Made by a program: the position numbers and the translations under genes. Under the pieces are notes generated by a model. The model did not search any database, had not been told where the DNA came from, and worked only from the letters and a program-made list of their open reading frames with translations. From a virus, in the IMG/VR virus record IMGVR_UViG_3300044630_003053, positions 1 through 64,000 of that record: a stretch of DNA of 64,000 nt; one strand, 5' to 3'. Shown here piece by piece: positions 34,009 to 56,477 of the stretch (positions are counted from its first letter, which is position 1; each line of letters starts with the position of its first letter).

Positions 34009-34066
34009 ATGACAAAGTCGGAAGTAAAAACGTGACAATCTCGGAAGTAAAAACGTGACAATCTCG
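34003..34066. repeat. 23-nt tandem direct repeat, about 2.8 copies (CGTGACAATCTCGGAAGTAAAAA)
   Basis: read directly; upstream of the envelope-modification cluster. Confidence 0.8.
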
Positions 34067-34089
34067 GAAGTTAAGGATAATTATTATTT

Positions 34090-37744: not shown

Positions 37745-37985
37745 GTTTGGAATTGTAATAAAGATATCTTATCTTTGTAAAAGAAATTAGTTCATTGACA
37801 TTATTGGAAATATTATTTCATCTTCTTAATAGAAGATGGTGCCAGTTGTTTGGCACATAGTGAATTCTGAATAAACAGAATGTGGATTTATCCGTGGAGA
37901 TTAATTTCTCACTCACTCAATACCTTTTATTTTTTAAAAATATTGTTCACAACTCATTGTAACATAGAAGGTTGTATATGGATAG

Positions 37986-38270
37986 GTTGTGAATACCATT
38001 ACTTTGAAAGGTTTATACAACAGAGTGACTGTCTAAATGACTACGACCCGGTTGTGAATACCCCTACTTTAAAAGGTATATACAACCGGTATAGCTCTCA
38101 TGTCATTAATGATTTGGTTGTGAATACCATTACTTTGAAAGGTTTATACAACAAACGATTGAAAGGTATATACAACCACCACATAAATGAAGATATATAC
38201 AACATCCCATTCCATACTTTACATATTAAGGTATAAACAACGAATTGGTTATTAAAAGGTAATATACAAC
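37986..38270 (+). CRISPR. mini CRISPR-like array: 3 full 36-nt repeats (37986-38021, 38051-38086, 38117-38152), spacers of 29 and 30 nt, then 4 degenerate repeat 3'-fragments
   Basis: GTTGTGAATACCATTACTTTGAAAGGTTTATACAAC (x2) and GTTGTGAATACCCCTACTTTAAAAGGTATATACAAC; repeat termini GTTGT/ACAAC are inverted; decaying copies all end in TATACAAC/TAAACAAC. Confidence 0.7.
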
Positions 38271-38324
38271 ACGAAGTCTCACGACTTAAAGATTATTATT
38301 TCCAATAATATAAACAAAATAACC

Positions 38325-39692: not shown

Positions 39693-39850
39693 TATGTTCA
39701 CTAATCTCTACCGTTCACGGAACGTGAACATAGGTATTTTGTGAACACTTTTACCCTGAAGGGAGGAGACGAGAGTCTCCGACCGTACAATTACCCCCTA
39801 TAAAATTACCCCTCAGAACCCCTCCATAGGGGTTTTATTTTACCCCGAAT
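39693..39850 (+). ncRNA. candidate structured 3' RNA (omegaRNA/tracrRNA-like scaffold)
   Basis: consecutive hairpins GTTCACGgaaCGTGAAC, GGAGACgagaGTCTCC, CCCCTccatAGGGG plus T-run directly after the nuclease stop; no coding capacity. Confidence 0.35.
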
Positions 39851-40560
39851 TTTTTCCTGTTTATACCACTAAAAACCCCACTTTTTCCTGTCTGTTTTAT
39901 CGTGATCAATTAATATATCTAAAACTATCTTTTTCTATCCCATATTTGGGTTCTAGTATAATTTATCCACAATTCCCCACTTTCTCCCACTTACTAGGAA
40001 TATACCCTGGGATTGACCCGTGAGCGAATCACAGACCATTTTATTTTTTCTACCAGAATATACCCCTAATATCATTATATTATTACGGTCGGACTCTTCG
40101 AGTCCTCCCTTCAGGATGTCATACAAGTGTCTTAGTATAACCCTTTATATATTATATTAATCTGTCATACATTAGGTTCCACGTGGAACCCTGAAGGGGG
40201 ACCGAAGGTCCCCCGTATAATGAAACATTCGTAATACGGGATGAAGGGGACCGAAGGTCCCCGAGTATACTTATAATACTTTTATACGGTCCTGATGTGA
40301 TACGTCTATAATCCCTGAACCGTAATACAAACATTACTGGGGTGAAGTAGAAAATGGTTTGCCAAACAACATTAACATTACTGGGGAGACCAATATTGTT
40401 TGGCAGATTATACGGGGACCTTCGGTCCCCTTCAGGAGAATCTTAGAATAATCCTATGGAAATTAAAAAAACCCTTAGGGATTTTCCGAAGGGTTCTTAG
40501 TATAGTACAATATATGTCTTACAAGGAAAGGATGAAGGGGGACCGAAGGTCCCCCGTAAG
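39744..40560. repeat. family of six CTGAAGGG-[GC-rich hairpin]-GTA elements, incl. four GGGGACCGAAGGTCCCC hairpins, two inverted
   Basis: copies at 39744, 40085 (inv), 40187, 40237, 40406 (inv), 40529. Confidence 0.75.
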
Positions 40561-40567
40561 TAATACT

Positions 40568-41452
40568 CTATGTCCATTTAAAAATAAAGTTGAACTTATC
40601 TAAGTTACTTGAAAAACGAACAGGAACTAAATCATTTGATTTAAGTATGTATTTTATTCTTTCTGTTAATAGTGTTTCTAATAGTTCTTTTTTAGGTACT
40701 GCATAATCTTCAGAAAGTTTTGGGTACTCTATATAGATTGGCATAAAATCGAAGTCTACTTCCCCAGTAATCTTGTTGTGGCTTCTTGCATCACATTTGA
40801 AATTAAGTTTAACATTTTTGGGGAATTTATAATATACCTTGATTTGTTTTAATTCACCATCATCTCCCATACTCGTATTGATTTCATCTGGTATTGTAAA
40901 GGTTCCCTCCTCGACGAAGTCAAGATGAACCTGAAGGTTATGTGGAGTATTCTTTTGGGATTGGAGTTGTCTCAGACCTCTATTAATTCTTTCCAAGGTG
41001 GTGTCGTCGAGTTCCATTACAGATCTAAATCCCACGGGGTCCTTAAGAAACGTCATCAGAGTCTTTACTTTACGAACTTCTTTTGTCCATTGAAGTATCT
41101 CCACGGGTAATACAGTGTCCATTGCACTGTTTAAGTTAAATCCAATGAATTCATTCATTCCCCCAGTAAATAATAGGTCACTGATCCTCACCGTGGTTTC
41201 ACCCATCTCATTACTATTCCCATCCATGTACTCGTCATACATGGGCTTGAACTTCTCCGCGATTTCGGTCATCAACTTGAATATTATATCTGGTTGGACC
41301 TGAGTCTCACGTATTACGATGTTCAAGTAAGCACCAAATGTACTGAAAGTTTCAGGTAATGTATAATAAATCTCACCGTTTATTGTGTTCAACGGACCCC
41401 TCAGAGACTTTACGAATCTCTCGAAATCTGATTTGTCTAATATTTTTCCCAT
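40568..41452 (-). CDS. hypothetical protein (294 aa)
   Basis: ORF. Confidence 0.5.
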   Translation of the reverse strand: MGKILDKSDFERFVKSLRGPLNTINGEIYYTLPETFSTFGAYLNIVIRETQVQPDIIFKLMTEIAEKFKPMYDEYMDGNSNEMGETTVRISDLLFTGGMNEFIGFNLNSAMDTVLPVEILQWTKEVRKVKTLMTFLKDPVGFRSVMELDDTTLERINRGLRQLQSQKNTPHNLQVHLDFVEEGTFTIPDEINTSMGDDGELKQIKVYYKFPKNVKLNFKCDARSHNKITGEVDFDFMPIYIEYPKLSEDYAVPKKELLETLLTERIKYILKSNDLVPVRFSSNLDKFNFIFKWT

Positions 41453-41518
41453 AGATATAAATATAAAAAAAAAGGTTCCATGGTGGTGGAACCTCTTAGT
41501 AATACATGTGTAATAAGA

Positions 41519-41698
41519 CTATCGTCCCATTAACTCGTTACGGAACTGTACGGCCTTTCTCTTACTAGAGAAATTCTTAGAGTACTTAGTACCATTAACA
41601 CTTACACGTACACGGTAAGATGAACCATCATGATAGATGTTGTCGGCGACAGGAACATACGTAGTTACTGTGGTGCGACGGGATGTTGTTTTTTTCAT
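41519..41698 (-). CDS. small AP2-like DNA-binding domain protein (59 aa)
   Basis: hand-translated: ...GSSYRVRVSVNGTKYSKNFSSKRKAVQFRNE fits the AP2/integrase-type pattern; terminator at 41470-41500. Confidence 0.35.
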   Translation of the reverse strand: MKKTTSRRTTVTTYVPVADNIYHDGSSYRVRVSVNGTKYSKNFSSKRKAVQFRNELMGR

Positions 41699-41968
41699 TT
41701 GTGACTATTTTAAGTTTATATATAAAATATAACAAATAATATCCAAATAAAAAAATCCTGTCAAAAAAATATTTTATCCCAGTAATGTTCCGAGTCCCTG
41801 ATCAGGTCCCACTGTTGAGATATCTATCTCCCCACTTCTTGGTCATATAGGCATCATACCTATGTACCTTGTTCGGGTTGAACAGGAATATCACGAAGTA
41901 GTAATCCCACTTCCACTCTAAATCTTTTAAAAACTTCTTCATATGATGTTGTTTATTCCCCAGTAATG

Positions 41969-42235
41969 TTATCCCATCTTCTCCTTCCTGAGGATGTCGG
42001 TCAGAAGATTTTTGTGATTTTGGAGGATTACACCGTGCTGTTTCTTAAGAGCTTCGTCCAAAGACATTCTTTTGTGTGTAATCCTCCAATTGATTCTGTC
42101 GGTCGACTCCCATCGTTCCCAATGTTTACCACTAGGTGATAATTGAATTCTACTGTGAATCTTTTTCATTTGCTTTTTATTTGATAATTCCGCAAAGGTA
42201 CGGTGTTTAAGGGTTAATAACAAACCCTTAAACAA
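41969..42235 (-). CDS. hypothetical protein
   Basis: ORF; start may be internal. Confidence 0.35.
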   Translation of the reverse strand: MFKGLLLTLKHRTFAELSNKKQMKKIHSRIQLSPSGKHWERWESTDRINWRITHKRMSLDEALKKQHGVILQNHKNLLTDILRKEKMG

Positions 42236-42794
42236 ATTCTTCAGTTTTAATCATATTGAAGTCAATTGACTTCAGTTTGAATATTAAGTAATCGATAGCT
42301 ATTCCCACTATCTTTCCATTGTGCTTAGCCACAAGAAGTCGGTAGGAACCATCTCCATAACCTGAAGACGATACTACCCCAGTATTATATGAACCCCACT
42401 GTTGGCTTGACAAGGTTAATCTGCACATCTTCTCATACCACTTATCTCCCTCACCCTCACACGGTAACATAAAGTCCATCTTAGGTGCTGTTATCTCATC
42501 AGCAATGGAATCATTCCTATAGGACTCCATATCAAATATCCCACACTGACCTGAGTCAACACCGATATCTGCTGCGGTAACTGTTCTCCAAGACAAATCG
42601 TCCTCCACATAATCCTTGTGGACAGCAACAAGTGCTGCACATCTTGTACCCCAACCACCGGTCTCATCCGATTTGAATGCTGTGGAGGAATACTCACCAG
42701 GTAATACATCTGTCAACTTATGCTGACACCAGGTAGGGACAGTGTAACAAGGGTCCGATACCATAACTTCCGAGCCTAAATAAATTTTTTCCAT
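42228..42794 (-). CDS. hypothetical protein
   Basis: ORF. Confidence 0.5.
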   Translation of the reverse strand: MEKIYLGSEVMVSDPCYTVPTWCQHKLTDVLPGEYSSTAFKSDETGGWGTRCAALVAVHKDYVEDDLSWRTVTAADIGVDSGQCGIFDMESYRNDSIADEITAPKMDFMLPCEGEGDKWYEKMCRLTLSSQQWGSYNTGVVSSSGYGDGSYRLLVAKHNGKIVGIAIDYLIFKLKSIDFNMIKTEEFV

Positions 42795-42795
42795 T

Positions 42796-43119
42796 TTAAA
42801 TTACATTTATTGTGAATGATTCTGTTTCGATTTGTCTGTGTAAATAAACTAAGTGTTCCATTGTAAGGTCGTTATAACCTAAGTCGTGGTAACCATCTCC
42901 TGTAATACCTTTGGTGATTAACTCACCTGTGGTTCCACATATTCCAATAACAACTACTTTAACTTGGTAGTCGTCGTCGAAGTTTTGGGTAAACCACACT
43001 GAGAATGGGCTGGTTAATTCTAATTCAAAATCATCCCCTCCGTTAAGTTTAACGGTTCTGTGGACGATATCTCGGTGAATACTATCACGGAGTTTTAATA
43101 ATTCTTGACCATAGTTCAT
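42796..43119 (-). CDS. hypothetical protein
   Basis: ORF. Confidence 0.45.
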   Translation of the reverse strand: MNYGQELLKLRDSIHRDIVHRTVKLNGGDDFELELTSPFSVWFTQNFDDDYQVKVVVIGICGTTGELITKGITGDGYHDLGYNDLTMEHLVYLHRQIETESFTINVI

Positions 43120-43175
43120 ATGATTAATAGTTTTAGTGTAATACGAAATTAGATATTATTTTCGAATATTCCAAA

Positions 43176-43658
43176 TTATCCTAGAATATTTTTTAGAACT
43201 TTAACATTCTCGTTAATCTCAAGGTCCATCACTTTAAGTAACTTCTCCTTAGCTAACTCCATAAACTCTACACTGTTACCCAGTAAATCAATGTCCGTCC
43301 CGTGCACATCCGTCTTCCCGACGATGACCCTGATGTCCTTAGTGCCTTTACCCTCTCTATAGAATAGAGCTCGAGCGTAGATGTACTCACGAACCAAAGA
43401 CAGTTTGATTTCATCAGCAACCGATTCCTTAGAACGGAGTTGCATAATGATTTCTTCTAACTTGGCTAACATCTCGAAGTTGGTCTTCATCATACGGATG
43501 CTGTTCTTATACTGATTACAGTACTTCACCAGCTCATCAGTGTGAGGAATACTTAAATCGATGTCCACATTAAGGAACCGATCGTACGAACTAATTCTAT
43601 CTCGGGTACCCACTATCTCGGTGAATACTCCTCCCGTTAAACGATTTTCTCTACCCAT
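43176..43658 (-). CDS. hypothetical protein
   Basis: ORF. Confidence 0.45.
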   Translation of the reverse strand: MGRENRLTGGVFTEIVGTRDRISSYDRFLNVDIDLSIPHTDELVKYCNQYKNSIRMMKTNFEMLAKLEEIIMQLRSKESVADEIKLSLVREYIYARALFYREGKGTKDIRVIVGKTDVHGTDIDLLGNSVEFMELAKEKLLKVMDLEINENVKVLKNILG

Positions 43659-43882
43659 TTTATTTTTGTTTTTAATTTGTTTAAAATCCCAGTAAACTTG
43701 TCCCCATCCTGGCTCACCTCAGGTGCGAACTCATATCTCGTGTTCATTGTACTTCCCAAATAACCAGTAAAGTATTTGGTTGGTTCAACATATTGGCTTG
43801 ATACTCTATATCTTTCCACCCACTCATTAAATGATAATGGGGTTTGGAATGTGCTCATCTTACATTTCAGTTTCTTTTCCAT
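43637..43882 (-). CDS. hypothetical protein
   Basis: ORF. Confidence 0.4.
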   Translation of the reverse strand: MEKKLKCKMSTFQTPLSFNEWVERYRVSSQYVEPTKYFTGYLGSTMNTRYEFAPEVSQDGDKFTGILNKLKTKIKWVEKIV

Positions 43883-44519
43883 ATATCTCTTTTACTTCGT
43901 TAAAAATTTCTTCTAATGTTTTAAGGTCTTCCTCCCCAGTAATAAAATGGAACATTTCCTTCACCGACTCGAAGGTTACATCTTCATCACTCTCGAACAA
44001 ATAGTCAATGTCGCCGTCGATAGATTCAAAGAAGTTCTCCTTGTCGAAAAGATATCTACCCTCATTGTATGAATAATCTTCTTCGGTTAATCCATTCTCA
44101 TTGTCAAAATAAGATTTACCACAGAAGTCACAACCTGGTTCTTCATAATATAACTCACACTTCACATTGAATAACCTACCCAAGTGTTGAATGAAGTTTA
44201 TTGGTGGTGACCAAGCTGAATCGAACGACATTGTTATTGATTCGTCATCATAAGTGATATTAGCTTCGTTGTATGACACATCCCACTTACAACCCCAGTA
44301 ATTAATGTTGGCATCGTACCATCCTCCGTGTTCGTATTCATTTAACTCAATAGATTTGTCACGACCAACAAGAGCCATAAAAATGCCAGGGGATGTGTTA
44401 TCCTTACTCTCGATATCTTCGAGATAAAATTTAATTCTGTCCAAGTTTTCGTTATCACCTGTAATAGTAAGGTGATTGTTGCACCAATTTGGCATAGTTG
44501 TATGATTTATGTTTAACAA
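43860..44519 (-). CDS. hypothetical acidic protein
   Basis: ORF. Confidence 0.45.
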   Translation of the reverse strand: MLNINHTTMPNWCNNHLTITGDNENLDRIKFYLEDIESKDNTSPGIFMALVGRDKSIELNEYEHGGWYDANINYWGCKWDVSYNEANITYDDESITMSFDSAWSPPINFIQHLGRLFNVKCELYYEEPGCDFCGKSYFDNENGLTEEDYSYNEGRYLFDKENFFESIDGDIDYLFESDEDVTFESVKEMFHFITGEEDLKTLEEIFNEVKEIYGKETEM

Positions 44520-44569
44520 AGATATAACAGGGATATCATTATTCCAAATAATATCCCCGTTATTTTATT

Positions 44570-45052
44570 TTACCAAGAAGCTCTGTATTCAAAGTCACCA
44601 GAGTACAATCCGTGTTCTTTGGATTGTTCGTGTTCTTCTAATAACTCCTCAATGATTTTGATAGTTGAGTTTACATCTTCTTTGTAATACTCATCAATTT
44701 CATCACCACCGAAAAAGAAACCCTGTACTGGTGGAAGAAGTTCTTTAGCCTTATCAAAGTTGGAACTAACTTCTTTTAGTGTTTCAAATAACTCTTTCAG
44801 CTTGTCCTCATCAACATTGATGTTTTGACATTCATCAATACCACCACCACAATTCTCAACGAACCATCCGTGAAGTGCATTGAACTTTCTCCAATACGCC
44901 ACCTGTTCGGTGATGTAACAAATACGATTTGGTTTAATGTCGTTACGAACTACACCATTCTTTTTAACTTCGATTTGGTGTTGTTGTTCAGGTGGGTTGT
45001 GTTCCCAATTTTGTACATAAGTTCTTTTGTACAGATACATGTCTAGTCCCAT
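44570..45052 (-). CDS. hypothetical protein
   Basis: ORF. Confidence 0.45.
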   Translation of the reverse strand: MGLDMYLYKRTYVQNWEHNPPEQQHQIEVKKNGVVRNDIKPNRICYITEQVAYWRKFNALHGWFVENCGGGIDECQNINVDEDKLKELFETLKEVSSNFDKAKELLPPVQGFFFGGDEIDEYYKEDVNSTIKIIEELLEEHEQSKEHGLYSGDFEYRASW

Positions 45053-45115
45053 GATTTTTTAGTTTAAGTGTTAATTAATAATGTAAAGGTATTACAATAA
45101 TTTTATTATACCAAA

Positions 45116-45439
45116 TTATTTTATGAAAAGTTTACTATCGATTGTAAATAATTCTTTGTACTCACTTCCGTCAGCATTCTGTCCGTTTAAATTCCAGAAT
45201 GGCAATACTCTTGGATTGTATTTTAAATGTGCGGTAGTTTCAGGAACAAAATCTTCTGTAAGGATTTCTATTTCTTTACAAAGAACATATGCACAAACGA
45301 CTTTGGTGGTTTCCCCAGTAAATATTTTCTGCGCTGCTGTCCTGTTGTTTTTCAGAACGCAATCAGTTAGTATTAACTGAACTTCAGCTGGGTGATAATA
45401 TTTCACCCAGCCGTTGTTATATTCAATTTTCCATTTCAT
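45116..45439 (-). CDS. hypothetical protein (start trimmed to MKWKIEY)
   Basis: ORF-track start 45679 would overlap the neighbouring gene by 200 nt. Confidence 0.4.
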   Translation of the reverse strand: MKWKIEYNNGWVKYYHPAEVQLILTDCVLKNNRTAAQKIFTGETTKVVCAYVLCKEIEILTEDFVPETTAHLKYNPRVLPFWNLNGQNADGSEYKELFTIDSKLFIK

Positions 45440-45473
45440 ATAGTTCTCTCCCTTTCCGAGATTAAACCTAACT

Positions 45474-45926
45474 TTATGCTTTTTCAACTTCTTCCTTTTT
45501 ATATTTTTTAACAAATTGGGATGGAGTACCACGAAACAATTCAGTTTTATTTCCGTCGTTCTCATAACAAACAAACTCAATGGAGTAATCTTCTTTAACG
45601 ATAACATCATAAAGATAATCTTCCCAAGAATTTCCACGACTTGACAAAGATTGTACATAGGTGTTTCCTGTTTCGCCACCTTTTAATTTCCAAATGAGTT
45701 GAGCGGCTAAACAACCAGCTCCGTTGAATACTAATTTCTTTTCGTTGGCACCATACCCATTAACGACTTTTCCTGTTGATAACCATTCAGCGGTTTCAAG
45801 TGGATGACCTGTTGGGTATCCATCATACTGACGATAGATTAAACAGATTTCATTCTGTTTTACTTTTTTTACTTTTTTACCTGTTGAGTATTCCTCAATG
45901 ATGCGGTAAGTTGAACGAGTTCCCAT
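45474..45926 (-). CDS. hypothetical protein (start trimmed to MGTRSTY)
   Basis: TTTGG...TATCTTTGT promoter lies inside the extended ORF. Confidence 0.4.
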   Translation of the reverse strand: MGTRSTYRIIEEYSTGKKVKKVKQNEICLIYRQYDGYPTGHPLETAEWLSTGKVVNGYGANEKKLVFNGAGCLAAQLIWKLKGGETGNTYVQSLSSRGNSWEDYLYDVIVKEDYSIEFVCYENDGNKTELFRGTPSQFVKKYKKEEVEKA

Positions 45927-46102
45927 AATAGATTTTTTTTTGTGATTAATATTATAGTACAAAGATAATACTTTTTTATTACCTGCCAAATTTATTTTCA
46001 ACTTTTTTAAAAAAATATTTGCCGGCGTCATGCATAATCCTAAACATTACTGGGGTGTAATACGGATCTGATCGGCGCACGATCTGCAAAACTGGCTAAA
46101 CA

Positions 46103-46124
46103 TTACTGGGATTTACCCCAGTAA
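46103..46124. repeat. representative TTACTGGG...CCCAGTAA inverted-repeat hairpin, one of about 60 copies across 40.3-58.0 kb
   Basis: ATTACTGGGATTTACCCCAGTAA. Confidence 0.8.
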
Positions 46125-46196
46125 ACTTTCGCCTCAGGCCTGTGCAGGTACAGTGCACAGCAAAAAAAATCCCCACCTTTCGGTGAGGACATTAAA

Positions 46197-46997
46197 TTAA
46201 AGTTGTATGACAAACTTATTCTTTGTTAACTTATTTCGAACTCGTTTATATTTTAGTCCGACAATTACATTCTTTTTATCTTTATACCTCATATCGTATA
46301 AATCCCCATCGATTACTTTCCTATCCCAAAATGTTTTAGGTACTTTATTAAAAACAACCGCCACCCTTACATTCTTATTTAACATTGAGTGACACTCATT
46401 TAAATTGTGACCGCTATAAGAGAAAGTTAAATCGTAGTTCTTATATTTTTTAAGTAGTTCGATTCTTTTAGGAACCTTTGTATAATCGTAGAATTGGATG
46501 TGTTGAAAGTATTGTAAAATATTAACGGGTTTATCATTTACATGAATATAAAATGATTCGGGCGTTATATCTGATGTGTTATTCAAACGAACCGAAAATT
46601 TATAACCTAACTTCTTAGCTTTTAATTCTGTGGACTTAATTTCATCAAACATCCAATTAACAAAAAATTCCCTGTGTTCAAAAAACAATTTAGTTTTTGC
46701 AATTCGTGAACGATTAATTTTATCGTCCTCCATGTTCATCGTGTTCATCCCTGATTCATTCAAACATAACTTTGTACATTCTTTTGTTCTCATAGGGCAA
46801 ACCTCGTAACCGCTCATTTTTGCAGGAGCTAAGTACAAACTATATGTTAATTCATCGTACTTGAATGCCTTCTGATGTTTCGTCGTCATATTAACGGAAC
46901 CTAAATAAGATATCCCTGTTAATCTTTTTGCTTGAGCCTTAGTAGTGTAAATCATTTGTTTATTTTTTAGTGTAGTGAGTAATTGTTGTTTCTTCAT
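46197..46997 (-). CDS. hypothetical protein with Cys cluster (VCPMRTKECTKLC)
   Basis: ORF. Confidence 0.5.
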   Translation of the reverse strand: MKKQQLLTTLKNKQMIYTTKAQAKRLTGISYLGSVNMTTKHQKAFKYDELTYSLYLAPAKMSGYEVCPMRTKECTKLCLNESGMNTMNMEDDKINRSRIAKTKLFFEHREFFVNWMFDEIKSTELKAKKLGYKFSVRLNNTSDITPESFYIHVNDKPVNILQYFQHIQFYDYTKVPKRIELLKKYKNYDLTFSYSGHNLNECHSMLNKNVRVAVVFNKVPKTFWDRKVIDGDLYDMRYKDKKNVIVGLKYKRVRNKLTKNKFVIQL

Positions 46998-47145
46998 CCA
47001 CCGACTCTGTCACCAAATCAAAATTGTTTTTTTTACACAATTTTTCCAATGCAGGTAGGCACGCATCGTAGGTTTCTTCATCGTCGAAGATTGCTACCAG
47101 TTCAGCATATTTGCCATTATCCAATTCGAAATAAACTTTTACCAT
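46960..47145 (-). CDS. hypothetical small acidic protein
   Basis: ORF. Confidence 0.35.
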   Translation of the reverse strand: MVKVYFELDNGKYAELVAIFDDEETYDACLPALEKLCKKNNFDLVTESVDEETTITHYTKK

Positions 47146-47420
47146 AGTGTTGTTTTTTTAGTGTACACAAATATACAACTAATACTTTTATAATCCAAAT
47201 TTATTTTTAAATATTTTTTTGAGTTAGCGCATGCGCGCAGCACTGGTCTAACTTTACTGGGGTAATACAACAGCAGATTACGCTGCAGATCATAGCTCCA
47301 ATAATTACTGGGATTCCCCAGTAAACTTCAGCGCTGGTCCGGGCTGTGTTTGCGCTGAAAGTAATACGCAAAAAAAAGGGTGAACATTTCTGTCCACCCA
47401 ATCGTTCACACTAATAAACA

Positions 47421-47735
47421 CTAATCACTAATTCGTTTTTCTGTTCTAATACACTCAGCTTCCCACTGCTCACATAGAAGTAATACATCTTCCAACACAT
47501 TCTCATTCAACTCCCAATAACTTTCTTCGTAGGTGTCGATAGCGTCAGAACTACTTGAACGAGGTTCGTACACATTTACTTCGATATAATCTTCTGTGAA
47601 ATATTCACCAAGCCCAACATAGTTACCTAATGTTCCGATAAGAATACTATTCTCACCTTCTAATTCTCCAATACTAAAACATCCGTTGACTTTTAGTATG
47701 TCTGTAATACGATTAATGATTTCTGAATTTTCCAT
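47421..47735 (-). CDS. hypothetical acidic protein
   Basis: ORF. Confidence 0.45.
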   Translation of the reverse strand: MENSEIINRITDILKVNGCFSIGELEGENSILIGTLGNYVGLGEYFTEDYIEVNVYEPRSSSSDAIDTYEESYWELNENVLEDVLLLCEQWEAECIRTEKRISD

Positions 47736-47737
47736 TT

Positions 47738-48049
47738 TTAAATTGATTTAGTATTATCCCAAATTATATTACCTTCCTCGTCATACAACTCCTCCGTAGG
47801 TTCTCCACCATTTTCTTCGGGTATTAAACCTTCAAGAGTTTCGTCAATATGTTCCCACGGCAATTCCGTGTTATCTCCTCTTTCACGGAACTCGATTGCC
47901 AATTTCTTAGCCTCCTCCAATGAGTTAGCCTCTATTTCAAATTCTGTACGATACCAAGTCGTAACCTTTGTGTCTAAATGAAAATTAAATGTTGTTAGGG
48001 TCTGTTCCATTTTCCATTGATTTTTTAATTGATATAATAAGTAATACAA
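47738..48049 (-). CDS. hypothetical protein
   Basis: ORF. Confidence 0.45.
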   Translation of the reverse strand: MYYLLYQLKNQWKMEQTLTTFNFHLDTKVTTWYRTEFEIEANSLEEAKKLAIEFRERGDNTELPWEHIDETLEGLIPEENGGEPTEELYDEEGNIIWDNTKSI

Positions 48050-48121
48050 CCATTACCGAAAACAATACAATAACTCCGAATCCTAAAAGTAGGCAATATA
48101 AGACATTCATAGTTTTAATTT

Positions 48122-48319
48122 TTAAAGTTCACGAATATACATATAATCTTCTAATTCTTCCAAAGGAATTCTTCCGTTGTTTGAGGAATAATATCCTTGT
48201 CTTCGATATCGTTCTTTCCACTTGTCAAATGCCTCAAATGCTTTTTCCTTTGAGGTGTAGTAAGGTCTATCGAATTCAATCGTAAACCCGTCGGGTGATA
48301 ATACTTCGTACCTTGTCAT
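48122..48319 (-). CDS. hypothetical protein
   Basis: ORF. Confidence 0.4.
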   Translation of the reverse strand: MTRYEVLSPDGFTIEFDRPYYTSKEKAFEAFDKWKERYRRQGYYSSNNGRIPLEELEDYMYIREL

Positions 48320-48320
48320 A

Positions 48321-48518
48321 TTAATCTTGTTTAATTAAAGTTTGAGAATACTCTTGTGTAATAAGTGTGTCCATGTGTTGTGAACCACTATAACGATTTA
48401 CTTCTCGTTGGGTTACAACTTGATGAGAACCGACGGGAATAAACCCTTCGTTAATGTACTTGTTTACTTTTTCGGTTAATCCTTCGGGGGATGAACTTGT
48501 TAATACTTTGTACTCCAT
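48321..48518 (-). CDS. DUF1737-like small protein
   Basis: MEYKVLTSSSPEGLTEKVNKYINEGFIPVG pattern; start trimmed because the promoter lies inside the longer ORF. Confidence 0.45.
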   Translation of the reverse strand: MEYKVLTSSSPEGLTEKVNKYINEGFIPVGSHQVVTQREVNRYSGSQHMDTLITQEYSQTLIKQD

Positions 48519-48844
48519 ATCTTTTTGTTTTAGTGTAAGACAAAGATAAAACAATAATATTATTTTACCAAATTTATTTTGAAGAATTTTCTCCAGCCCG
48601 ATCATCCCTAAACATTACTGGGTTGAATTGTTAGCCAGCGCAAATTTCCTGATCAGCGCGCGCAAATCTGGCTAATGTTTACTGGGGTAATACAAATAAC
48701 TCATGGACCAGGCATTGTGCGCAGGTGAAAATTACTGGGATGTCCCCAGTAAAATTCAGCGCTGTTTCTATGCAGCTACAGTGCACAGGTAATACACCCA
48801 GTAAACTTGTGACCCATCGCACAGTGTGACGGGGTTCCCCAAAC

Positions 48845-48873
48845 AAAAAACCCCCGAACTAAAAGTCCGAGGG
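48845..48873 (-). terminator. rho-independent terminator (module copy 1 of 3)
   Basis: minus-strand CCCUCGGACU uuuuag AGUUCGGGGG plus U6 with G-U pairs; identical 35-bp module also at 52545 and 56478. Confidence 0.6.
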
Positions 48874-48902
48874 TTTCACCAATATAATCTTTAACCTATG
48901 TC

Positions 48903-49763
48903 TTACACTAAATGTACAAGTTCCTTAAAGATTTGTCTTTCACGATTTCCGTAAGTTCCAAACATCTTATTTTCAGAATTGTCACCTTTACCCATACTAT
49001 GAGTTGTGTATTTTGTTACACCACTAAATAAACCCCAAATGTTATCACCCTTTTCGTTAATCTCACCATTAAGGTCAACATAGAATCTACTTAATTTATT
49101 TTGTGTCACGGTAGATAATGAATCAACATCCTTAATATCAACATTCTTTTCGATATTGAATAACGATTTGATTACTCTATCCTTGATAATATCATCGAAA
49201 CGAGTTTCACTCATTTTAACGATAGAACCGAACACATTCTTTTCTTCTTGTACTACACCCTCAATTTGTCGACAGATATCTTCTATCTTTAATTCCATAT
49301 TCTTTGTATGACGTACCTTTGAATCTAAATCCTTGTACACACCAAAGAACGTGTTTTGACAACTGATAGTTTTAGAACTAGGTCCGAACGATAATGAAGT
49401 CGAACCATCAAAAGAATTAATCCCAGTAACATAACCCTCGATTCTATCCGTCCCCAAAGTTAAGTCGTTTGATTTTAATTGAACGAATACTTTTCGTCCA
49501 CCACCGAACAAACCACCTCTATGAACATCAAGTCCAGTTTGTTGGGATACTTTGAATAATAGTTCCATCATTTGGTCATTCTGATATGGCACATAACCAT
49601 TCGAGTGAATACCCAAGATTGTACTATCATCCTCACGAACGATACCAATTTTATCAGGGATAATAATTCCTGACGAAGTTTGAAGTCCTTCGGTACGGAC
49701 TTTCCAATTTAAACCAGTTCTATCCAAGAACTGATTAACCCGATTGTTTTCTACGATTTCCAT
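48903..49763 (-). CDS. DUF932-like phage/plasmid protein
   Basis: N-terminal LDRTGLNWKV...GIVREDDSTILGIHSNGYVPYQN pattern. Confidence 0.45.
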   Translation of the reverse strand: MEIVENNRVNQFLDRTGLNWKVRTEGLQTSSGIIIPDKIGIVREDDSTILGIHSNGYVPYQNDQMMELLFKVSQQTGLDVHRGGLFGGGRKVFVQLKSNDLTLGTDRIEGYVTGINSFDGSTSLSFGPSSKTISCQNTFFGVYKDLDSKVRHTKNMELKIEDICRQIEGVVQEEKNVFGSIVKMSETRFDDIIKDRVIKSLFNIEKNVDIKDVDSLSTVTQNKLSRFYVDLNGEINEKGDNIWGLFSGVTKYTTHSMGKGDNSENKMFGTYGNRERQIFKELVHLV

Positions 49764-50017
49764 CTGTTTAATTTTTATGGTTTAATAAATGATTGTATGA
49801 CAAAGATAAATTAATCTGGGATATAATCCAAATTTATTTTTAAGAAATATTAATTATTTTTTTCCTCCTAATCCACCTGTGATCAGAGCTCCCAATATTA
49901 CTGGGTAATACTTGACGATACCCCAGTAATTTTACGGGACGATCAGGTCGAGAAAAATTCTTGGACATAAAAAAACCCCCGACAGAATCGGAGGTCTTAT
50001 TAAAGTAGGTGGTTTTA

Positions 50018-50338
50018 TTACACCAACAAATCTTGTACTGAATGTTCGGAAGTTTTTTCATCCCACACATCATCATTCCAATCTTCACCGACTTGGGTAC
50101 AAGTCTTGTAGAAAATTTCAACAACACCATTCTCGATGGTGACAACTCCTTCGGTTCTCTCGTTGATAGGAATCAAATCCTTTTCAACAAGAAACAAAAG
50201 TACGAGTTCGTACTCCAAAAATTGGTCGGTGTTCTCCGACTCAATGTATTCAACTTGTCCTTGGAAATCCAAGGAGAACTCAAACTCCACATTAGAGTTT
50301 AGAGTTTTTTCGATTTGGGAAGTGAACAAAGTGTCCAT
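50018..50338 (-). CDS. hypothetical acidic protein
   Basis: ORF. Confidence 0.4.
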   Translation of the reverse strand: MDTLFTSQIEKTLNSNVEFEFSLDFQGQVEYIESENTDQFLEYELVLLFLVEKDLIPINERTEGVVTIENGVVEIFYKTCTQVGEDWNDDVWDEKTSEHSVQDLLV

Positions 50339-50754
50339 AGTGTGTAGGTCTATTGGTTAGTAGACAATACAAATATAAAAAAGAAATTCCGTTTTACAAT
50401 ACATTTATGAAAAATTATTTTACTTTTTTTCTGACCCTGGTAATCCAAATATATTACTGGGTAATACAAGAATTCCAGTTCGGGGACCTACTGGAAATTA
50501 TTACTGGGATGTCAAGTTTTCAAATCAATAAACTTGACACATGTTGTAATAAAGTAAGTCAAAAACTTCACTTTTTGACACCTATTATACCCCAGTAAAG
50601 TAATACGTCCGAACCGTCGCGTCGGAAATTCTAACACACACTATAAACTCCCCAGTAAAGTAATACACCTAACCGGTCGAGGACCTGAGGTATGAACAAA
50701 AAAAAAAGGATAGTCTTTCGACTACCCTTCTTCACCTTTCCAACCTATGTATTT

Positions 50755-51315
50755 CTACACAACTACTCCTTCTAAATGTTGTAATACGGACTTACCTTCA
50801 TCCCAACAATCATTCTCACTATAATAACTTCCACAACATTCAACTAATGTTTTGTGTTCGTGACCTTTATTACAAGTTTCAATTTCATAAACTTTGTATT
50901 GATAAACTTCACCCGTTAAGTATTCATCATAAATTCTAACTTCACTATTCATAATCAAACTTAAATGTTCTTCACCCCTTTCAAATTCTTTACCACACAT
51001 TAAGTTCAATTGTTTTTCACTTATGAAAACCCAACCAACTTGTCCACTATCCCATTGACAACTGAACGGACTTGTGGATATAGTTATACCACTATGGTCG
51101 TACATATACAAAGGTTTAATCAAAAGGACTTTATGGTCACTTTCAATTTGTGACTTCAATTCATCCCAACTATCAAAGTCAACACTTTTGTAGTCAGTTT
51201 TGTCACCAATATCGTACCTTTTGTGAAAACAAATCATTGTAGTAATGTTATCCCACTCGGTACGAGGATTCATTGGGTCGTTATCGTGTTCGACAACTAA
51301 TTCATACTTTCTCAT
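50755..51315 (-). CDS. hypothetical Cys-rich protein (start at MRKYELV)
   Basis: ATG 51339 lies inside the TATATTTGTGTACAC promoter element. Confidence 0.45.
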   Translation of the reverse strand: MRKYELVVEHDNDPMNPRTEWDNITTMICFHKRYDIGDKTDYKSVDFDSWDELKSQIESDHKVLLIKPLYMYDHSGITISTSPFSCQWDSGQVGWVFISEKQLNLMCGKEFERGEEHLSLIMNSEVRIYDEYLTGEVYQYKVYEIETCNKGHEHKTLVECCGSYYSENDCWDEGKSVLQHLEGVVV

Positions 51316-51597
51316 TTTAATGTTTTTTAGTGTACACAAATATACAACTAATTCGGTTATATCAAAAATAAATTTGTTAAAATATTGTCAAAGAATTTTG
51401 GATACCCGTGAAGGTAAAATAATTTACTGGGATGTATGACAAGGATACCCCAGTAATAAACCTGCTTCCGTCTTCTGGAGATGGTCGTTCTTGTAATACC
51501 CCAGTAATAAAAACAGATGGACGGAGATGGAGAAATTTTTGAACAAAAAAAATCCACCCCTTTCGGAGTGGACTTCGGTTAGTAGGGGAACTAACCT

Positions 51598-52128
51598 TTA
51601 AATGAACTCGTAAATGTTTCCGTTGTATGACACTTCTTTAACATTATCCAAACTTACCGATAAGGTTTGTACCTTTCTTTCACTCGGTTGATTTTTGTAA
51701 TTGTTTGACTTCACTAACCAACTTTCAAACAAAGTTTGGTCAATAGGGTTTCCCTCAAACTCAAATTCAACTTGTGGTTTCACTTCCATAAACCACTCGT
51801 ATTGAAGATAATACTTTTTTGTATTTTCGTTGTAAAGGATAACATTGTTGATGTGGTTACCAACTTTGTTTTCACTTACTTTGAAATTACCTTCACCACC
51901 CCCCTTAATTTCATTTCCGATTACTCGTTGTTCGTACTCACCACCGATTAAAACTCTAACCGATTTTTTCTTCACAACTTTTCCATAATACTTGTTCAAA
52001 CCTTCCCTACCCCCTTTGTTCATTTTTGGGATAGTGTGTGTAACTAAATTCATAAATGTAGGATTTTTAACCTCGTTCATCATTTTGATAAACTCACCTT
52101 GTAGGATTTTGAAACGATTTTTTTTCAT
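51598..52128 (-). CDS. hypothetical protein
   Basis: ORF. Confidence 0.45.
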   Translation of the reverse strand: MKKNRFKILQGEFIKMMNEVKNPTFMNLVTHTIPKMNKGGREGLNKYYGKVVKKKSVRVLIGGEYEQRVIGNEIKGGGEGNFKVSENKVGNHINNVILYNENTKKYYLQYEWFMEVKPQVEFEFEGNPIDQTLFESWLVKSNNYKNQPSERKVQTLSVSLDNVKEVSYNGNIYEFI

Positions 52129-52544
52129 AACATTATTTTGTTTATTTTTTCAATACTCTAAATTACAACTTTTATCCAATATAACAAAATATATTTAATA
52201 TTTTTTTATCCACATTCTTAATTTTTTTTTGTGGACAAATTGTGGATAACTTTTTTCCCCTTGATCCAGAAAATAAATTACTGGGGACTCTCTGACAAAA
52301 AATCTGTCCCGTTCAGGAAAACAATACTGGGGAAAACGAAAAAACATGTATCGATGTGTTGATGCAGGAAAACAATACTGGGGACGTAAAGAAAAAAAAT
52401 CTGTAGATCTACCTGTTCGATATTACTGGGGTGTAATACGTTTTACCCCAGGAAACTTTTCCTGGACGATCAGATCCAAGGTTCATTGTTGTGTAATACC
52501 CCAGTAATTTTTCCCTGGAGACTCAGGTGAAGATTCAGTAGAAA

Positions 52545-52574
52545 CAAAAAACCCCCGAACTAAAAGTCCGAGGG
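52545..52574 (-). terminator. rho-independent terminator (module copy 2)
   Basis: identical to the 48845 module. Confidence 0.6.
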
Positions 52575-52597
52575 TTTCAAAAATAATCGTGTTGAGT

Positions 52598-52810
52598 CTA
52601 ATACATTATTTCAAACTTATCTTCATCGGGAATTACGGATAAACTTCTTCCGTTATCCCAATTAACACCATAGTAACCCATATCATCAACGAATACAATC
52701 GTACCCATTGTGTTAGGTTGAATAGGGTTTGTCTTTGGGTCATCATCCATTAGAATCAATCTAATTCTTTTACCAACTAATTCTTTTCTAATTTTTAATA
52801 GTTCAAACAT
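52598..52810 (-). CDS. DUF4314-like protein
   Basis: GTIVFVDDMGYYGVNWDNGRSLSVIPDEDKF. Confidence 0.45.
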   Translation of the reverse strand: MFELLKIRKELVGKRIRLILMDDDPKTNPIQPNTMGTIVFVDDMGYYGVNWDNGRSLSVIPDEDKFEIMY

Positions 52811-52821
52811 TGTTATAGGTT

Positions 52822-53022
52822 TTATTCGTGAGAAAATAACATTTCCAATAAACCTAAAACGATAGGATGTACCTCATTATTGTTTGAGTTCCCCCATTGT
52901 TTGACTTCCCCATTTTCTTGGATGTGAAAGTTTGTCTTTGTACCATCGGTCAGTTTGAACCAACCCTTAACCTCATTGTTCCCAATGAAATTCATTTTTT
53001 GTGTTGTGATTTGTGTTTCCAT
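52822..53022 (-). CDS. hypothetical small protein
   Basis: ORF. Confidence 0.35.
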   Translation of the reverse strand: METQITTQKMNFIGNNEVKGWFKLTDGTKTNFHIQENGEVKQWGNSNNNEVHPIVLGLLEMLFSHE

Positions 53023-53343
53023 TTGTTTATGTGTTTAGTACCCAAATATACAACTATTATTTTTATATACAAACATTATTTGTTAAAATTTTGTAAAAGA
53101 ATTTTCCCGTGTTGTAACATGAAATTTATTACTGGGGTAATACGAAGATGAGGTTTTTTCCAAGCAGACGACACGACATTACTGGGTGATGTCATACGTT
53201 CATCCCAGTAAAATTGTCCCATCTGCATGTGCGCAACGGCAGTTGCGTTTGCGCTGATTCGGTAATACACCTAAAAAGAGAAACCCCCACCATTTCTGAT
53301 GAGGGCTCACTTACTAACCACACTATTAAACAAAACTATTGTC

Positions 53344-53490
53344 TTACATATCGTACGCAAATGTAGGGATAAAAAACCAAAACATAAAGTAAAATGTTCC
53401 AATTATTAATATCAAACTAAAAATTGCATCCCAAAATTCCCTTTTGTCTTCCTTGTAGACCTCAATAATCGTCTTTATCATATCTTTCAT
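53344..53490 (-). CDS. small membrane protein
   Basis: internal start chosen to avoid a 146-nt overlap. Confidence 0.25.
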   Translation of the reverse strand: MKDMIKTIIEVYKEDKREFWDAIFSLILIIGTFYFMFWFFIPTFAYDM

Positions 53491-53491
53491 C

Positions 53492-53851
53492 TTAATATGT
53501 GTTTTGATTATAGGTATCATACGTGTTATAATTTCTTTGTCGATTGTTTTCTCGATACTCATTACGAGGAACACGTTGAGGGTATCTTGGTCGTTGTATG
53601 AAGGAGTTTTCCATTTGTTCATCAATCGGTTGAACATTCCAATCTAAATCCATTTGTTTAGAATTTGCCCAATGAATGTTATAAATTGTTTCAAGTCGTT
53701 CAGTTACAATGATATAACTATTCTCGTTGAAGTGAACTTTGGTCACAGGCTCACCAGTGTTCTTGTCAATGATTTCATACATTGAATGTACATTTTGTGG
53801 ATTCATTACCACCGGTCTTTTTGAATTTGAATTTGTCAGTTTGATTAACAT
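53492..53851 (-). CDS. hypothetical protein
   Basis: ORF. Confidence 0.45.
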   Translation of the reverse strand: MLIKLTNSNSKRPVVMNPQNVHSMYEIIDKNTGEPVTKVHFNENSYIIVTERLETIYNIHWANSKQMDLDWNVQPIDEQMENSFIQRPRYPQRVPRNEYRENNRQRNYNTYDTYNQNTY

Positions 53852-54237
53852 AACATTTAAATTTAAGAGTGAATAAATAATTTATAACATTTGAAATGTG
53901 AAATATGTCAAAAGAATTACCCAACAGATTGCACCAATAGTTAATGCTCGTTTTTCGTTATTTGGTATTTTCATTTTCTTGAATATGATTTATTGTTGAT
54001 ACAAAGATATAACAATTATATTAAACTTCCAAATTTATTTTAAGAAATCTTTTTTCGGGGGACAATCTATTACTGGGTTAAGCCCTGATGAAGTGGTAAT
54101 GTAGGTATTGGTACCGTCACACCCAAAATGGTTACTGGGTAATACATCCCAGTAAGTTATCCTGATGGGAAGATGATGTGGAAATTCTTGAGCATAAAAA
54201 ACCCCGTAGATACGGAGGTCTTCATTTAAAATCTTTA

Positions 54238-54906
54238 CTACTTTATCCGTCTTACAACGACCAAGACCATTGCCGCCCCCTTTTTAGCTCCGTCATTGTT
54301 GTCGAGATACTCGAAAATGTTTTCAATGTCATACTTGTAACCACCCTCACGATTAATAAAAGTTTTGATAACCCTCATAGTTTTACCATTGTCTTGACCT
54401 TTCGGTATTTGATAAGTGTTTAACTTATCGATAGTATTACAAAAAATTGTAGAAGGTCCTGGTGTAATTCGTTTGTTGAATGTTAGGGATATAGTACCAT
54501 CCACCTCGATAATATCGTTTCTAAAAATGTATTGGAGTTCCTGGTGAAATGTACCAATTTGACCACAATAGTCTAGTATCAAATGGCTATACTCCCCTTT
54601 GTTTGCATTGTATATAATATCCCCGATTGAACCAAAATAAAGTGAAGGAGTTTTCCCAACGAAATACTTCATTTTTTGTTTCTTGATATTTCGTTTTAAC
54701 TTGTCGAAGGTTATCTCATCTCGTTCGCACATAACATAGCGATACTTTCGAGAAACATCCTGGTAGATTGTTTTCTCAATTTCGAAATGTTCTGCAGGTA
54801 AAGAAAGGATTTTGTAGTTTTTCGTGTCCGAGTTGTGAATAGCGTGCACCATTATATTTCGTGCCGTGTTCTTGTTCGTTCCTTTGTGATTGGTGAAGGT
54901 GTTCAT
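54238..54906 (-). CDS. hypothetical protein
   Basis: ORF. Confidence 0.45.
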   Translation of the reverse strand: MNTFTNHKGTNKNTARNIMVHAIHNSDTKNYKILSLPAEHFEIEKTIYQDVSRKYRYVMCERDEITFDKLKRNIKKQKMKYFVGKTPSLYFGSIGDIIYNANKGEYSHLILDYCGQIGTFHQELQYIFRNDIIEVDGTISLTFNKRITPGPSTIFCNTIDKLNTYQIPKGQDNGKTMRVIKTFINREGGYKYDIENIFEYLDNNDGAKKGAAMVLVVVRRIK

Positions 54907-55239
54907 ATCATAACATTAAGGTTAAAGAATACACAAATATAAAACTAATTCCATTATATACAAAATAAAAATGTTAATCTTTTCTAAAAATTTATTTATC
55001 GGTCTGACGGGAAAGTTTATTACTGGGGAAATGAAGATGAAGATTTTCTGTAAGAGTAAAAAATCATTTACTGGGACACTCCACCCAGTAATTTAATACT
55101 GATGATCATCGGAGATTTCTTCAGACTTCACGGAGCGTAACCCAGTAAATTATCCGGATGGGAAGATGCAGGTAAAATTCTTGGACACAAAAAAGGGGTA
55201 CCATTTCTGATACCCCAATTTTCACTAACACCACAAATA

Positions 55240-55500: not shown

Positions 55501-55501
55501 A

Positions 55502-56137: not shown

Positions 56138-56477
56138 TTGTTTTGTGTTTTAGTGTTCACAAATATAAAACTAATTCCATTATATACAAAATAAAAATGT
56201 TAAAACTTTCTAAAAATTTATTAACCGGTAAACGGGGGATAATGTATTACTGGGGAAATGAAGATGAAGAATTCCTCAAGAGGTGAAAACGATTTTACTG
56301 GGATGTATTACCCAGTAATTGATTTACGTCCATGATGGTCCCACGACTCGTAGTTTTCTTCGCATATCCCAGTAATGTAATACCGGTGATCGTTATAAAT
56401 TTCTTCAGACTCTATCTTCAATATCCCAGTAATATGTCATACCTGTCCAACAGTGTGACGGAGATTCTTCCACAAAC

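Follow-up and report, generated by a model that had tools for sequence, protein, structure and literature searches.

A non-coding block at positions 39693-40567 of the virus record IMGVR_UViG_3300044630_003053, of which positions 1 to 64,000 were analysed (hereafter the window), was found to contain six copies (E1 to E6) of a short hairpin element whose base pairs are maintained by compensated changes in related phages. The block is a self-standing module of the phage backbone, and the family of elements appears undescribed. Tentatively, it is read here as a cis-acting DNA module with hairpins of the single-strand initiation (ssi) type, which might be an origin or priming site.

Composition of the block and its relatives

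The block lies between the stop codon of a + strand gene for a 455-amino acid (aa) protein at 39692 and that of a - strand gene for a 294-aa protein at 40568, exactly at the switch between the strands where the first-pass annotation, made from the letters of the window, had placed it. Its content of guanine and cytosine (GC) is 0.40 compared to 0.33 in the window, which agrees in direction with the earlier description as GC-rich in an AT-rich genome, although the difference is modest. When the folding of the DNA was compared with that of dinucleotide shuffles, z-scores of -11.2 and -9.4 were obtained for its two strands.

The elements follow the consensus YTGAA, GC hairpin, GYA, the six copies spanning 39756-40558 with none elsewhere in the 64 kb (Table 1). 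Across the relatives the consensus is (C/A)TGAA, GC-rich stem and loop, G(T/C/A)A and then A/T-rich sequence. The 17-mer GGGGACCGAAGGTCCCC occurs four times in the 64 kb, compared to an expectation from shuffles of 0.02 at up to three mismatches. When the whole window was searched with a covariance model and filters switched off, E2 to E6 were detected at E < 1e-3 and E1 weakly (E = 0.77), with nothing credible outside the block. Every hairpin named in the first-pass annotation was recovered where it had been placed, and its count of six elements, four of them identical (the 17-mer is absent from the rest of the window) and in both orientations (four +, two -), held as well. Its division of the block into a string of hairpins followed by six elements did not hold, as the hairpin GGAGAC-gaga-GTCTCC (39765-39780) assigned to the string is the core of E1 and one of the six. 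E1 and E2 belong to a second class of elements with tandem G.A pairs within the stem (for example GGGCC-GA-CC-GAA-GG-GA-GGCCC), and their inner stems covary. In 73-75 distinct elements with the YTGAA foot, a C-GNA-G apex and GYA, the stem length is 5-10 bp, mostly 7-8.

Table 1. Features of the block and of the adjoining cargo slot, with positions in the window.
Feature	Position	Strand	Sequence and remarks
E1	39756-39787	+	CTGAA-GG-GA-GGAGAC-GAGA-GTCTCC-GA-CC-GTA; tandem-GA type
E2	40084-40114	-	CTGAA-GG-GA-GGACTC-GAA-GAGTCC-GA-CC-GTA (read on -); right member of inverted pair
E3	40191-40217	+	CTGAA-GGGGGACC-GAA-GGTCCCCC-GTA
E4	40241-40267	+	ATGAA-GGGGACC-GAA-GGTCCCC-GAGTA; nearly invariant among relatives
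E5	40411-40435	-	CTGAA-GGGGACC-GAA-GGTCCCC-GTA (read on -)
E6	40532-40558	+	ATGAA-GGGGGACC-GAA-GGTCCCCC-GTA; 10 nucleotides (nt) away from the - strand stop codon at 40568
G-element	39695-39747	+	nested inverted repeat TGTTCAC, 11 nt, GTTCACG-GAA-CGTGAAC, 11 nt, GTGAACA
C-rich short repeats	39788-39896		AATTACCCC twice, TTTTACCCC, TTTTTCCTGT twice; T1 embedded
T1, intrinsic terminator of + operon	39819-39841	+	CCCCT-ccat-AGGGG then TTTTATTTT
Invariant 12-mer	39897-39908		TTATCGTGATCA; exact in 29 of 29 loci reaching the position, the most divergent included
AT-rich stretch	39909-39962		separates 12-mer from DnaA-box array
DnaA-box array	39963-39991	+	perfect TTATCCACA, then degenerate TTCCCCACT and TCTCCCACT; 10-bp spacing
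Conserved sequence with small variable hairpin	40009-40032		GGGATTGACCC and GTGA-GCGAA-TCAC; sequence conserved in all relatives
AT-rich spacer	40117-40190	+	TGTCATACA at 40117 and 40163; palindrome GGTTCCACGTGGAACC at 40175-40190
Motif stretch	40333-40405		two ATTACTGGGG; inverted repeat TGCCAAACAACATT / AATATTGTTTGGCA
T2, intrinsic terminator of - operon	40464-40494	-	AACCCTT...AAGGGTT then seven U on -
Slot promoter	37746-37777	+	TTTG, 20 nt, TATCTTTG; Bacteroidota-type; left edge of variable segment, which it drives
Structured leader	37778-37984	+	about 200 nt between promoter and array; 48 predicted pairs
Mini CRISPR array	37985-38152	+	three 37-nt repeats; partial repeats on to about 38290
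Cas12f-family gene, 455 aa	38325-39692	+	Pfam PF07282; best solved relatives Cas12f effectors, E = 1e-44

Relatives were recovered by exact-motif scans, which returned seven viral and 40 metagenome contigs, mostly from freshwater (their loci are numbered from L001), and a homologous block was present in most of them. As judged from these loci, a family of uncultivated phages with promoters of the Bacteroidota type, found in freshwater and other aquatic metagenomes, conserves the block by synteny. About 45 related contigs have it, and it is still carried by relatives in which the neighbouring 294-aa protein is down to 47-50% identity. In the window and in the loci fetched, the elements are confined to a single locus of 0.8 kb. 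An inverted pair with E1 as its left and E2 as its right member brackets the C-rich repeats, the 12-mer, the AT-rich stretch and the DnaA boxes at conserved distances: among 23 distinct blocks, in every case where coverage extends to both sides, the + element ends 74-154 nt before the 12-mer and the - element starts 158-224 nt after it. Of the metagenome contigs with the motif (L012-L051), about half end at most about 500 nt from the block, and L005 comes from a 100-kb viral contig whose end lies within the block; such ends may be assembly breaks at repeats or real heterogeneity.

Individual parts of the block vary among the relatives. E1 differs in stem and loop with its pairing kept (GGGAGAC-ATC-GTCTCCC in L002 and L011, a longer GACA-looped stem in L003 and L053). 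The stem orthologous to E3 is GGGGACAC/GTGTCCCC or GGGGGTTC/GAACCCCC, and the site orthologous to E6 reads GGGGTTCC-GTA-GGAACCCC, GGGGACCAC-GGA-GTGGTCCCC or GGGGGTTC-GAA-GAACCCCC. E5 is cleanly missing from L017, L038, L040 and L049 and has its loop flipped to TTC in L033. The DnaA-box array is conserved in most relatives, but in L013, L014, L023, L045, L016, L043 and L044 it is inverted between fixed flanks; an array which keeps its sequence and flips its orientation between lineages would fit protein-binding DNA. The G-element is, by its distribution, a variable backbone element outside the nuclease cassette: it stands after unrelated genes in L001, L006, L018 and L045 and is missing from L002, L003 and L053, and the loop of its inner hairpin GTTCACG-gaa-CGTGAAC (39713-39729), which is GAA in the window, is TTC in L045. 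The small hairpin at 40020-40032 was rejected as a conserved structure, being kept in only some relatives and lost in L026 and L041.

T1 folds in minimum-energy and centroid structures and is conserved in window-type relatives, while six viral contigs, even the divergent L006 and L011 being among them, carry an exact copy of a 20-mer of T2, and T2 folds in both DNA predictions. The two terminators face inward and enclose most of the block, but not E1 or E6. The earlier suggestion of bidirectional terminators thus applies to T1 (+) and T2 (-) and not to E1-E6, none of which combines its hairpin with a U-run, the 3' flank being GYA followed by mixed A/T.

Database searches returned little. Nothing was found in Rfam at the gathering threshold in the window or in 20 related loci, and an E-value scan of the window gave chance-level matches at most. 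Scans for transfer RNA and transfer-messenger RNA were negative in the window and 34 loci, blastn of the block against GenBank phages yielded no match, and tblastn of a neighbouring 188-aa protein and of the nuclease yielded no cultured relative. A 21-mer scan of bacterial species representatives gave a single match, on a contig with 66% GC, which was discarded as unrelated.

Selection on the stems and the choice between DNA and RNA

Among 75 distinct simple elements 16 different stems were found, for example GGGGACC, GGGGACAC, GGGGTTCC, GGGCCACC, GGGGGTTC, GGGCCGAC and GGGCTGAACC. In element sets chosen partly for pairing, a gap-free alignment of 25 elements (the 8-bp subset) reached a covariation score of 0.577 compared to 0.110 in shuffles, and 124 covariance-model matches (73 distinct) had Watson-Crick pairs in 549 of 549 pair cells, with 106 two-sided changes, no one-sided changes and no G.U pairs. 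A whole-block alignment based on synteny, which is free of that bias, has these compensated swaps as well, at the sites orthologous to E3 and E6. To judge from this pattern of substitutions, the hairpins are under strong, strand-specific structural selection. Larger arrangements were also considered. Pairing of E4 with E5 or of E1 with E2 as closing helices of a large RNA was rejected because the partner stems differ within L012 and L042 while the local hairpins persist. An inverton between E4 and E5 was dropped as all relatives are colinear there, and a lower AU-rich helix beneath the elements is present in some copies only and not conserved.

The loops of the 75 elements are GAA in 54, GTA in seven, GTTA in five, GACA in three, TTC in two, and GGA, GTCA and GATA in one each. 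They fit C-GNA-G and C-GNNA-G closed by a C-G pair, the apex CCGAAGG is frequent, and seven of the ten tetraloops break the GNRA rule of RNA. Known mini-hairpin motifs of DNA are CCGAAGG in ssiA, GCGAAAGC in the G4 origin and GCGTTAGC in St-1 and alpha3 (PMC13037366); a review places such motifs at priming and initiation sites, and the promoters of phage N4 have GGA or GAA loops (PMC13037366, PMC4496689). Among close relatives whole loops flip from GAA to TTC, which points to DNA, as such flips are a product of DNA hairpin formation. Furthermore, G.U pairs are absent from the stems of the elements, whereas an RNA-like leader in the same genomes has several of them as well as one-sided changes. 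Taken together, loops and stems suggest that the elements act as single-stranded DNA and not as RNA. By-eye comparison with hammerhead, twister, K-turn, sarcin-ricin, box C/D and boxB/nut motifs, and with CRISPR repeats and RNA anti-CRISPRs, gave misfits at the core positions, and Rfam was silent.

A possible initiation module and its competitors

In the mechanism proposed for the block, opening of the core would allow each element to fold on its own strand into a mini-hairpin resistant to single-stranded DNA-binding protein (SSB), and a primase or replisome-loading factor would read the conserved bases at the foot of this mini-hairpin. If the mini-hairpins are read in this way, the module would serve as an origin or priming site, or at the least as a cis-acting site of DNA initiation. 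Synthesis templated by the strand containing the GNA loop would run away from the core, to the left from E1 and to the right from E2. Precedents for the model are ssiA and ssiB of RSF1010 and the complementary-strand origins of G4, St-1 and alpha3. For the rest of the block the first-pass annotation had offered a packaging or replication site; it is the replication site which is favoured here, with the reserve already expressed.

In RSF1010 (IncQ oriV) a 21-nt hairpin has on its 5' side six nt to which the primase RepB' binds, and on its 3' side a triplet where RepB' starts; the two ssi sites lie on complementary strands and are inverted relative to each other (PMC8567376). Like the elements of the block, they are units of about 30-40 nt with a conserved 5' tail, a GC-rich hairpin with a CCGAAGG apex and a conserved 3' triplet (PMC8567376, PMC13037366), and their two inverted copies lie near repeats and an AT-rich stretch. 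The elements have this layout of 5' tail, hairpin with mini-hairpin apex and 3' triplet as a likeness of arrangement and not of sequence, homology being limited to the apex. The arrangement of inverted copies may have its counterpart in the pair E1/E2, which flanks repeats, 12-mer, AT-rich stretch and DnaA box, and the one perfect and two degenerate DnaA boxes at 10-bp spacing beside the AT-rich stretch might be compared with an oriC. Unlike RSF1010, the block has five or six copies rather than two, its flanks are YTGAA and GYA, it belongs to a large double-stranded DNA phage and not to a strand-displacement plasmid, and the window yielded neither a primase of the RepB' type nor a RepC initiator or 20-bp iterons. 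In the primase-dependent origins of G4, St-1 and alpha3 the priming site has hairpins with GCGAAAGC or GCGTTAGC mini-hairpins, and GAAA-type and GTTA loops are both found among the variants of the elements. These origins, however, use the packaged single strand and three different hairpins, whereas the hairpins of the block would need local unwinding first because the phage genome is double-stranded.

A number of observations weigh against an origin or priming site. The block coincides with the cumulative GC-skew maximum and with the junction of the converging gene sets; forks leaving it would meet transcription head-on because the gene sets converge there, and the skew maximum may be just coding-strand bias. 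Pfam and PHROGs scans of about 36 open reading frames (ORFs) of the window, among them every ORF of 300 aa or more and most of those up to about 7 kb from the block, returned no gene for a primase, helicase, polymerase or initiator. The presence of five or six hairpins instead of two, in the orientations + - + + - +, is only partly explained by outward priming. The block has a single perfect DnaA box, DnaA-like 9-mers are not enriched in the window, and a 1.2-kb non-coding region at the divergent switch (57.0-58.2 kb) is at least as origin-like. As to the single-stranded DNA character of the elements, GAGA, GACA and GAAA loops and tandem G.A pairs are good RNA motifs too, loop identity may partly reflect common descent of the copies, and copies evolve in concert within genomes, shared stems being frequent in one genome. 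E1 (sense) and E6 (antisense) are transcribed because both lie outside the terminators, and a motif GT[CA][AT]TACA, which also occurs in the start region of the phage's own promoters, is often found 4-25 nt upstream of elements and of other hairpins.

Part of this would be expected if the hairpins acted as RNA, as modules in the 3' untranslated regions (UTRs) of the converging operons and in small transcripts of the promoter-poor gap, where they could be exonuclease blocks, processing sites or protein-binding sites similar to the intercistronic CUUCGG hairpins of T4 or to repetitive extragenic palindromes (REP). To the RNA-like loops, the tandem G.A pairs and the upstream motif may be added the sense orientation of E1 between stop codon and T1, the AU-rich tail after most elements and one inserted hairpin in relatives in which G.U is confined to the + strand. 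Such a role is nevertheless considered rather unlikely in view of the lack of G.U in 549 stem cells when a genuine RNA-like structure of the same genomes has it, of the predominance of triloops and of tetraloops outside the GNRA rule, and of the antisense orientation of E6 in the sole transcript demonstrably covering it. Besides, all 23 distinct blocks are free of canonical promoters (TTTG-N17-23-TAnnTTTG), the elements are restricted to one locus and do not recur in other 3' UTRs, and there is no Rfam match in the window or in 20 relatives.

REP and bacterial interspersed mosaic elements (BIME) in bacteria and the promoter-early stem-loop (PeSL) cassettes of T4-type phages are GC-rich intergenic palindromes with a conserved foot which occur in both orientations. 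PeSLs flank shuffled cargo genes, and REPs and PeSLs are dispersed through the genome. The elements could be palindromes of such a kind, or similar to miniature inverted-repeat transposable elements, with no positive function, gained and lost through hairpin-mediated events and acting as recombination or boundary sequences for cargo swaps. This agrees with the variable slot described below, whose right-hand end coincides in every relative with E1 or the G-element and whose promoter, together with E1, flanks exchanged cargo in the manner of a PeSL. It also agrees with the presence or clean absence of E5 depending on the relative, with extra elements or insertions beside E3 and E6, with the stems shared within one genome as a sign of concerted evolution, and with the breaks close to the block in about half of the metagenome contigs. 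It is made improbable by the synteny of the elements, whose positions are kept while neighbour proteins diverge to about 50% identity, by stems kept through compensated changes with no decayed copies, by the fact that variable cargo is bordered by E1 only, and by the confinement of all copies in the window and fetched loci to the one 0.8-kb locus, from which it follows that they have not spread in the way of REP or BIME.

In the early promoters of phage N4, a GC-rich hairpin of 5-7 bp has a loop of three nt and a sheared G:A pair. Stem positions are conserved and covary, the run which links hairpin and start site is conserved too, and SSB is resisted by the template-strand hairpin only (PMC4496689). 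These promoters depend for their function on hairpin extrusion from duplex DNA. The elements match them in stem size, GNA loop, strand bias and covariation, and might thus be template-strand DNA promoters for a phage RNA polymerase of the N4 virion type which reads extruded hairpins. This is very doubtful, as N4 promoters have a fixed loop-to-start distance, all face the early genes at the genome end and serve a giant virion polymerase, whereas in the elements the loop is not at a fixed distance from the conserved flank because stem length varies (5 to more than 12 bp) and an insertion of 33 nt sits in one of the loops. They point both ways and mostly at no gene, no large RNA polymerase gene is present in the window (the largest ORF has 633 aa), and the phage genes have host-type promoters. 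Just as little credence is given to the elements as single-strand recombination sites, which with the promoter at 37746-37777 would form an integron-like cassette platform. That E1 would in this case be an attC-type folded site for exchanging cargo such as the Cas12f mini-CRISPR unit among related phages is equally far from probable.

If the hairpins do act as initiation signals, the block would be a sequence-defined module for origin function or priming in a large group of uncultivated Bacteroidota phages, a natural use of DNA mini-hairpins on a double-stranded phage genome and a concrete cis element for work on replication, vector design and host range.

The cargo slot, the Cas12f cassette and other features

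The sequence TTTG, 17-23 nt, TAnnTTTG, the Bacteroidota-type promoter consensus, occurs 28 times in the window. From these canonical promoters 26 are co-oriented with the gene blocks, on + from 1-38 kb and on - from 42-57 kb (for example 37746-37777, 47175 and 49808), and none lies between 37778 and 42190. Their location ahead of genes points to a Bacteroidota host; a scan for sigma-70 promoters and terminators gave no information, the promoters of the host being of a different type.

Homology between the window and L001, L002 and L003 breaks off at about 37750-37780 (with L001 at 37778, with L002 at 37753) and restarts at 39712-39780, all three loci having other genes in between. In many relatives backbone homology restarts at E1, and in relatives with other cargo the restart is about 5-20 nt from the nuclease stop codon. 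The layout in these loci is promoter, interchangeable cargo and block, Cas12f with its mini-array being one cargo among several: the slot contains a 462-aa protein with repeated Cys-rich modules in L001 (2956-4344), a 354-aa protein in L002 (5811-6875) and several small ORFs with their own promoter in L045 (2604-3817). An indel at 37.85-40.56 kb had been envisaged in the first-pass annotation; the segment replaced in relatives is the slot (from about 37750-37780 to 39712-39780), while the block is kept. Likewise, the idea of a recombination or insertion boundary suits E1 or the G-element as right-hand end of the slot and not the other elements, which border none.

For the nuclease 482 homologues were found at E <= 1e-20, many on contigs of 50-340 kb. 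Neither a nuclease homologue nor the CRISPR repeat was present in the first 51 loci, which had been found via the hairpin motif. The block adjoins a Cas12f-family gene with a mini-array, is hairpin-rich and has an anti-repeat-like stretch, as would be expected of a Cas12f trans-activating CRISPR RNA (tracrRNA) or TnpB omegaRNA, and its first 150 nt had been proposed to encode one. Solved Cas12f effectors, the closest relatives of the nuclease, use tracrRNAs. However, the block is not co-inherited with the nuclease. It is kept in most loci without the latter, the majority of the contigs with the block having other cargo genes instead; conservation in relatives lacking the nuclease was one of the two findings named beforehand as speaking against the proposal. 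Conversely, positions 39693-39754 are missing in L053, which has a 96%-identical Cas12f whose stop codon stands almost directly before E1 with no GTTCAC element, and in L056 (67% identity) the ORF ends within the foot of E1.

A search for an anti-repeat, also proposed earlier, did identify a candidate: with the array left aside, the repeat finds its best partner within 30-48 kb on the - strand of 39735-39768 (-26.8 kcal/mol, 24 bp in two blocks), in a duplex which ranks first of 7040 windows and is equalled by one of 1000 shuffles. Nuclease-less relatives, however, do equally well or better (L001 -25.9, L006 -28.6, L018 -30.6 kcal/mol). That the first 100 nt or so (39693-39800) encode a - strand tracrRNA or omegaRNA for the adjacent Cas12f is therefore scarcely credible, all the more as the stretch is missing from both L053 and L056 and a covarying scaffold with an anti-repeat is inherited with the gene upstream. 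On these comparisons a downstream tracrRNA is largely refuted. The + strand of 39733-39768 (GGTATTTTGTGAACACTTTTACCCTGAAGGG) is about 70% identical to the CRISPR repeat, yet it is backbone and present without the nuclease; this likeness may be due to chance, or the repeat may be derived from the backbone.

The upstream scaffold is the structured leader at 37778-37984. Seven of its pairs have compensatory double changes among four sequences, G.U pairs are present, and it travels with the nuclease down to 67% protein identity (L053 930-1136, L056 2440-2650, L058 2153-2365). It includes an anti-repeat, UUGUUCACAAC, complementary to the start of the repeat, and is likely to serve the Cas12f cassette as its tracrRNA-like guide scaffold. 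This would correct how a widespread Cas12f family carried by phages is annotated: its guide scaffold would precede the array instead of following the gene, and the nuclease would be merely one interchangeable cargo of a slot reaching from promoter to hairpin. Four or five partial repeats at 38153-38290 keep the 3' end only (GAAAGGTATATACAAC, GATATATACAAC, AAGGTATAAACAAC, AAAAGGTAATATACAAC) at irregular spacing, a pattern also found after the array in L053, L056 and L058.

The motifs of the stretch at 40333-40405 recur in intergenic regions of the - strand gene block. An 8-mer, TTACTGGG/CCCAGTAA, usually as ATTACTGGGG, has 61 copies at 40334-57935 compared to about two by chance, all of them in the - strand gene block with none before 40334. 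The copies are clustered in large intergenic gaps and often form inverted pairs around GTAATACA or GTCATACA (for example 54132-54155 and 56295-56318); the clusters look like modular regulatory or RNA units upstream of promoters. The sequence TTGCCAGACAAYATT recurs in both orientations, coding DNA included, in L006 (12190-13260) and L011 (10940-12000), and its version in the window is TTGCCAAACAACATT at 40359-40405; it is probably a protein-binding site.

The non-coding region at the divergent switch (57000-58213) has many copies of ATTACTGGGG between A/T runs and the GC palindromes GGGGGGTCCCCCC and CCCCC-TTATATA-GGGGG. A 23-nt tandem repeat in it, ACTGCGCACATTTAAGACTTTTT (58085-58147), has a homologous piece inside the block in L006, L026 and L041. 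Another 23-nt tandem repeat, TGACAATCTCGGAAGTAAAAACG, is intergenic at 34010-34071 with 2.7 copies and is conserved in L002. At 52206-52249 a stretch of 44 bp contains three 9-mers which resemble DnaA boxes and are arranged in inverted orientation, two being perfect TTATCCACA. Accessory genes typical of mobile DNA encode a PcfJ-like domain, a C-5 cytosine methylase and DUF932 (6169-8070, 9603-10577, 48903-49763), and a thymidylate synthase gene is located at 4106-5257.

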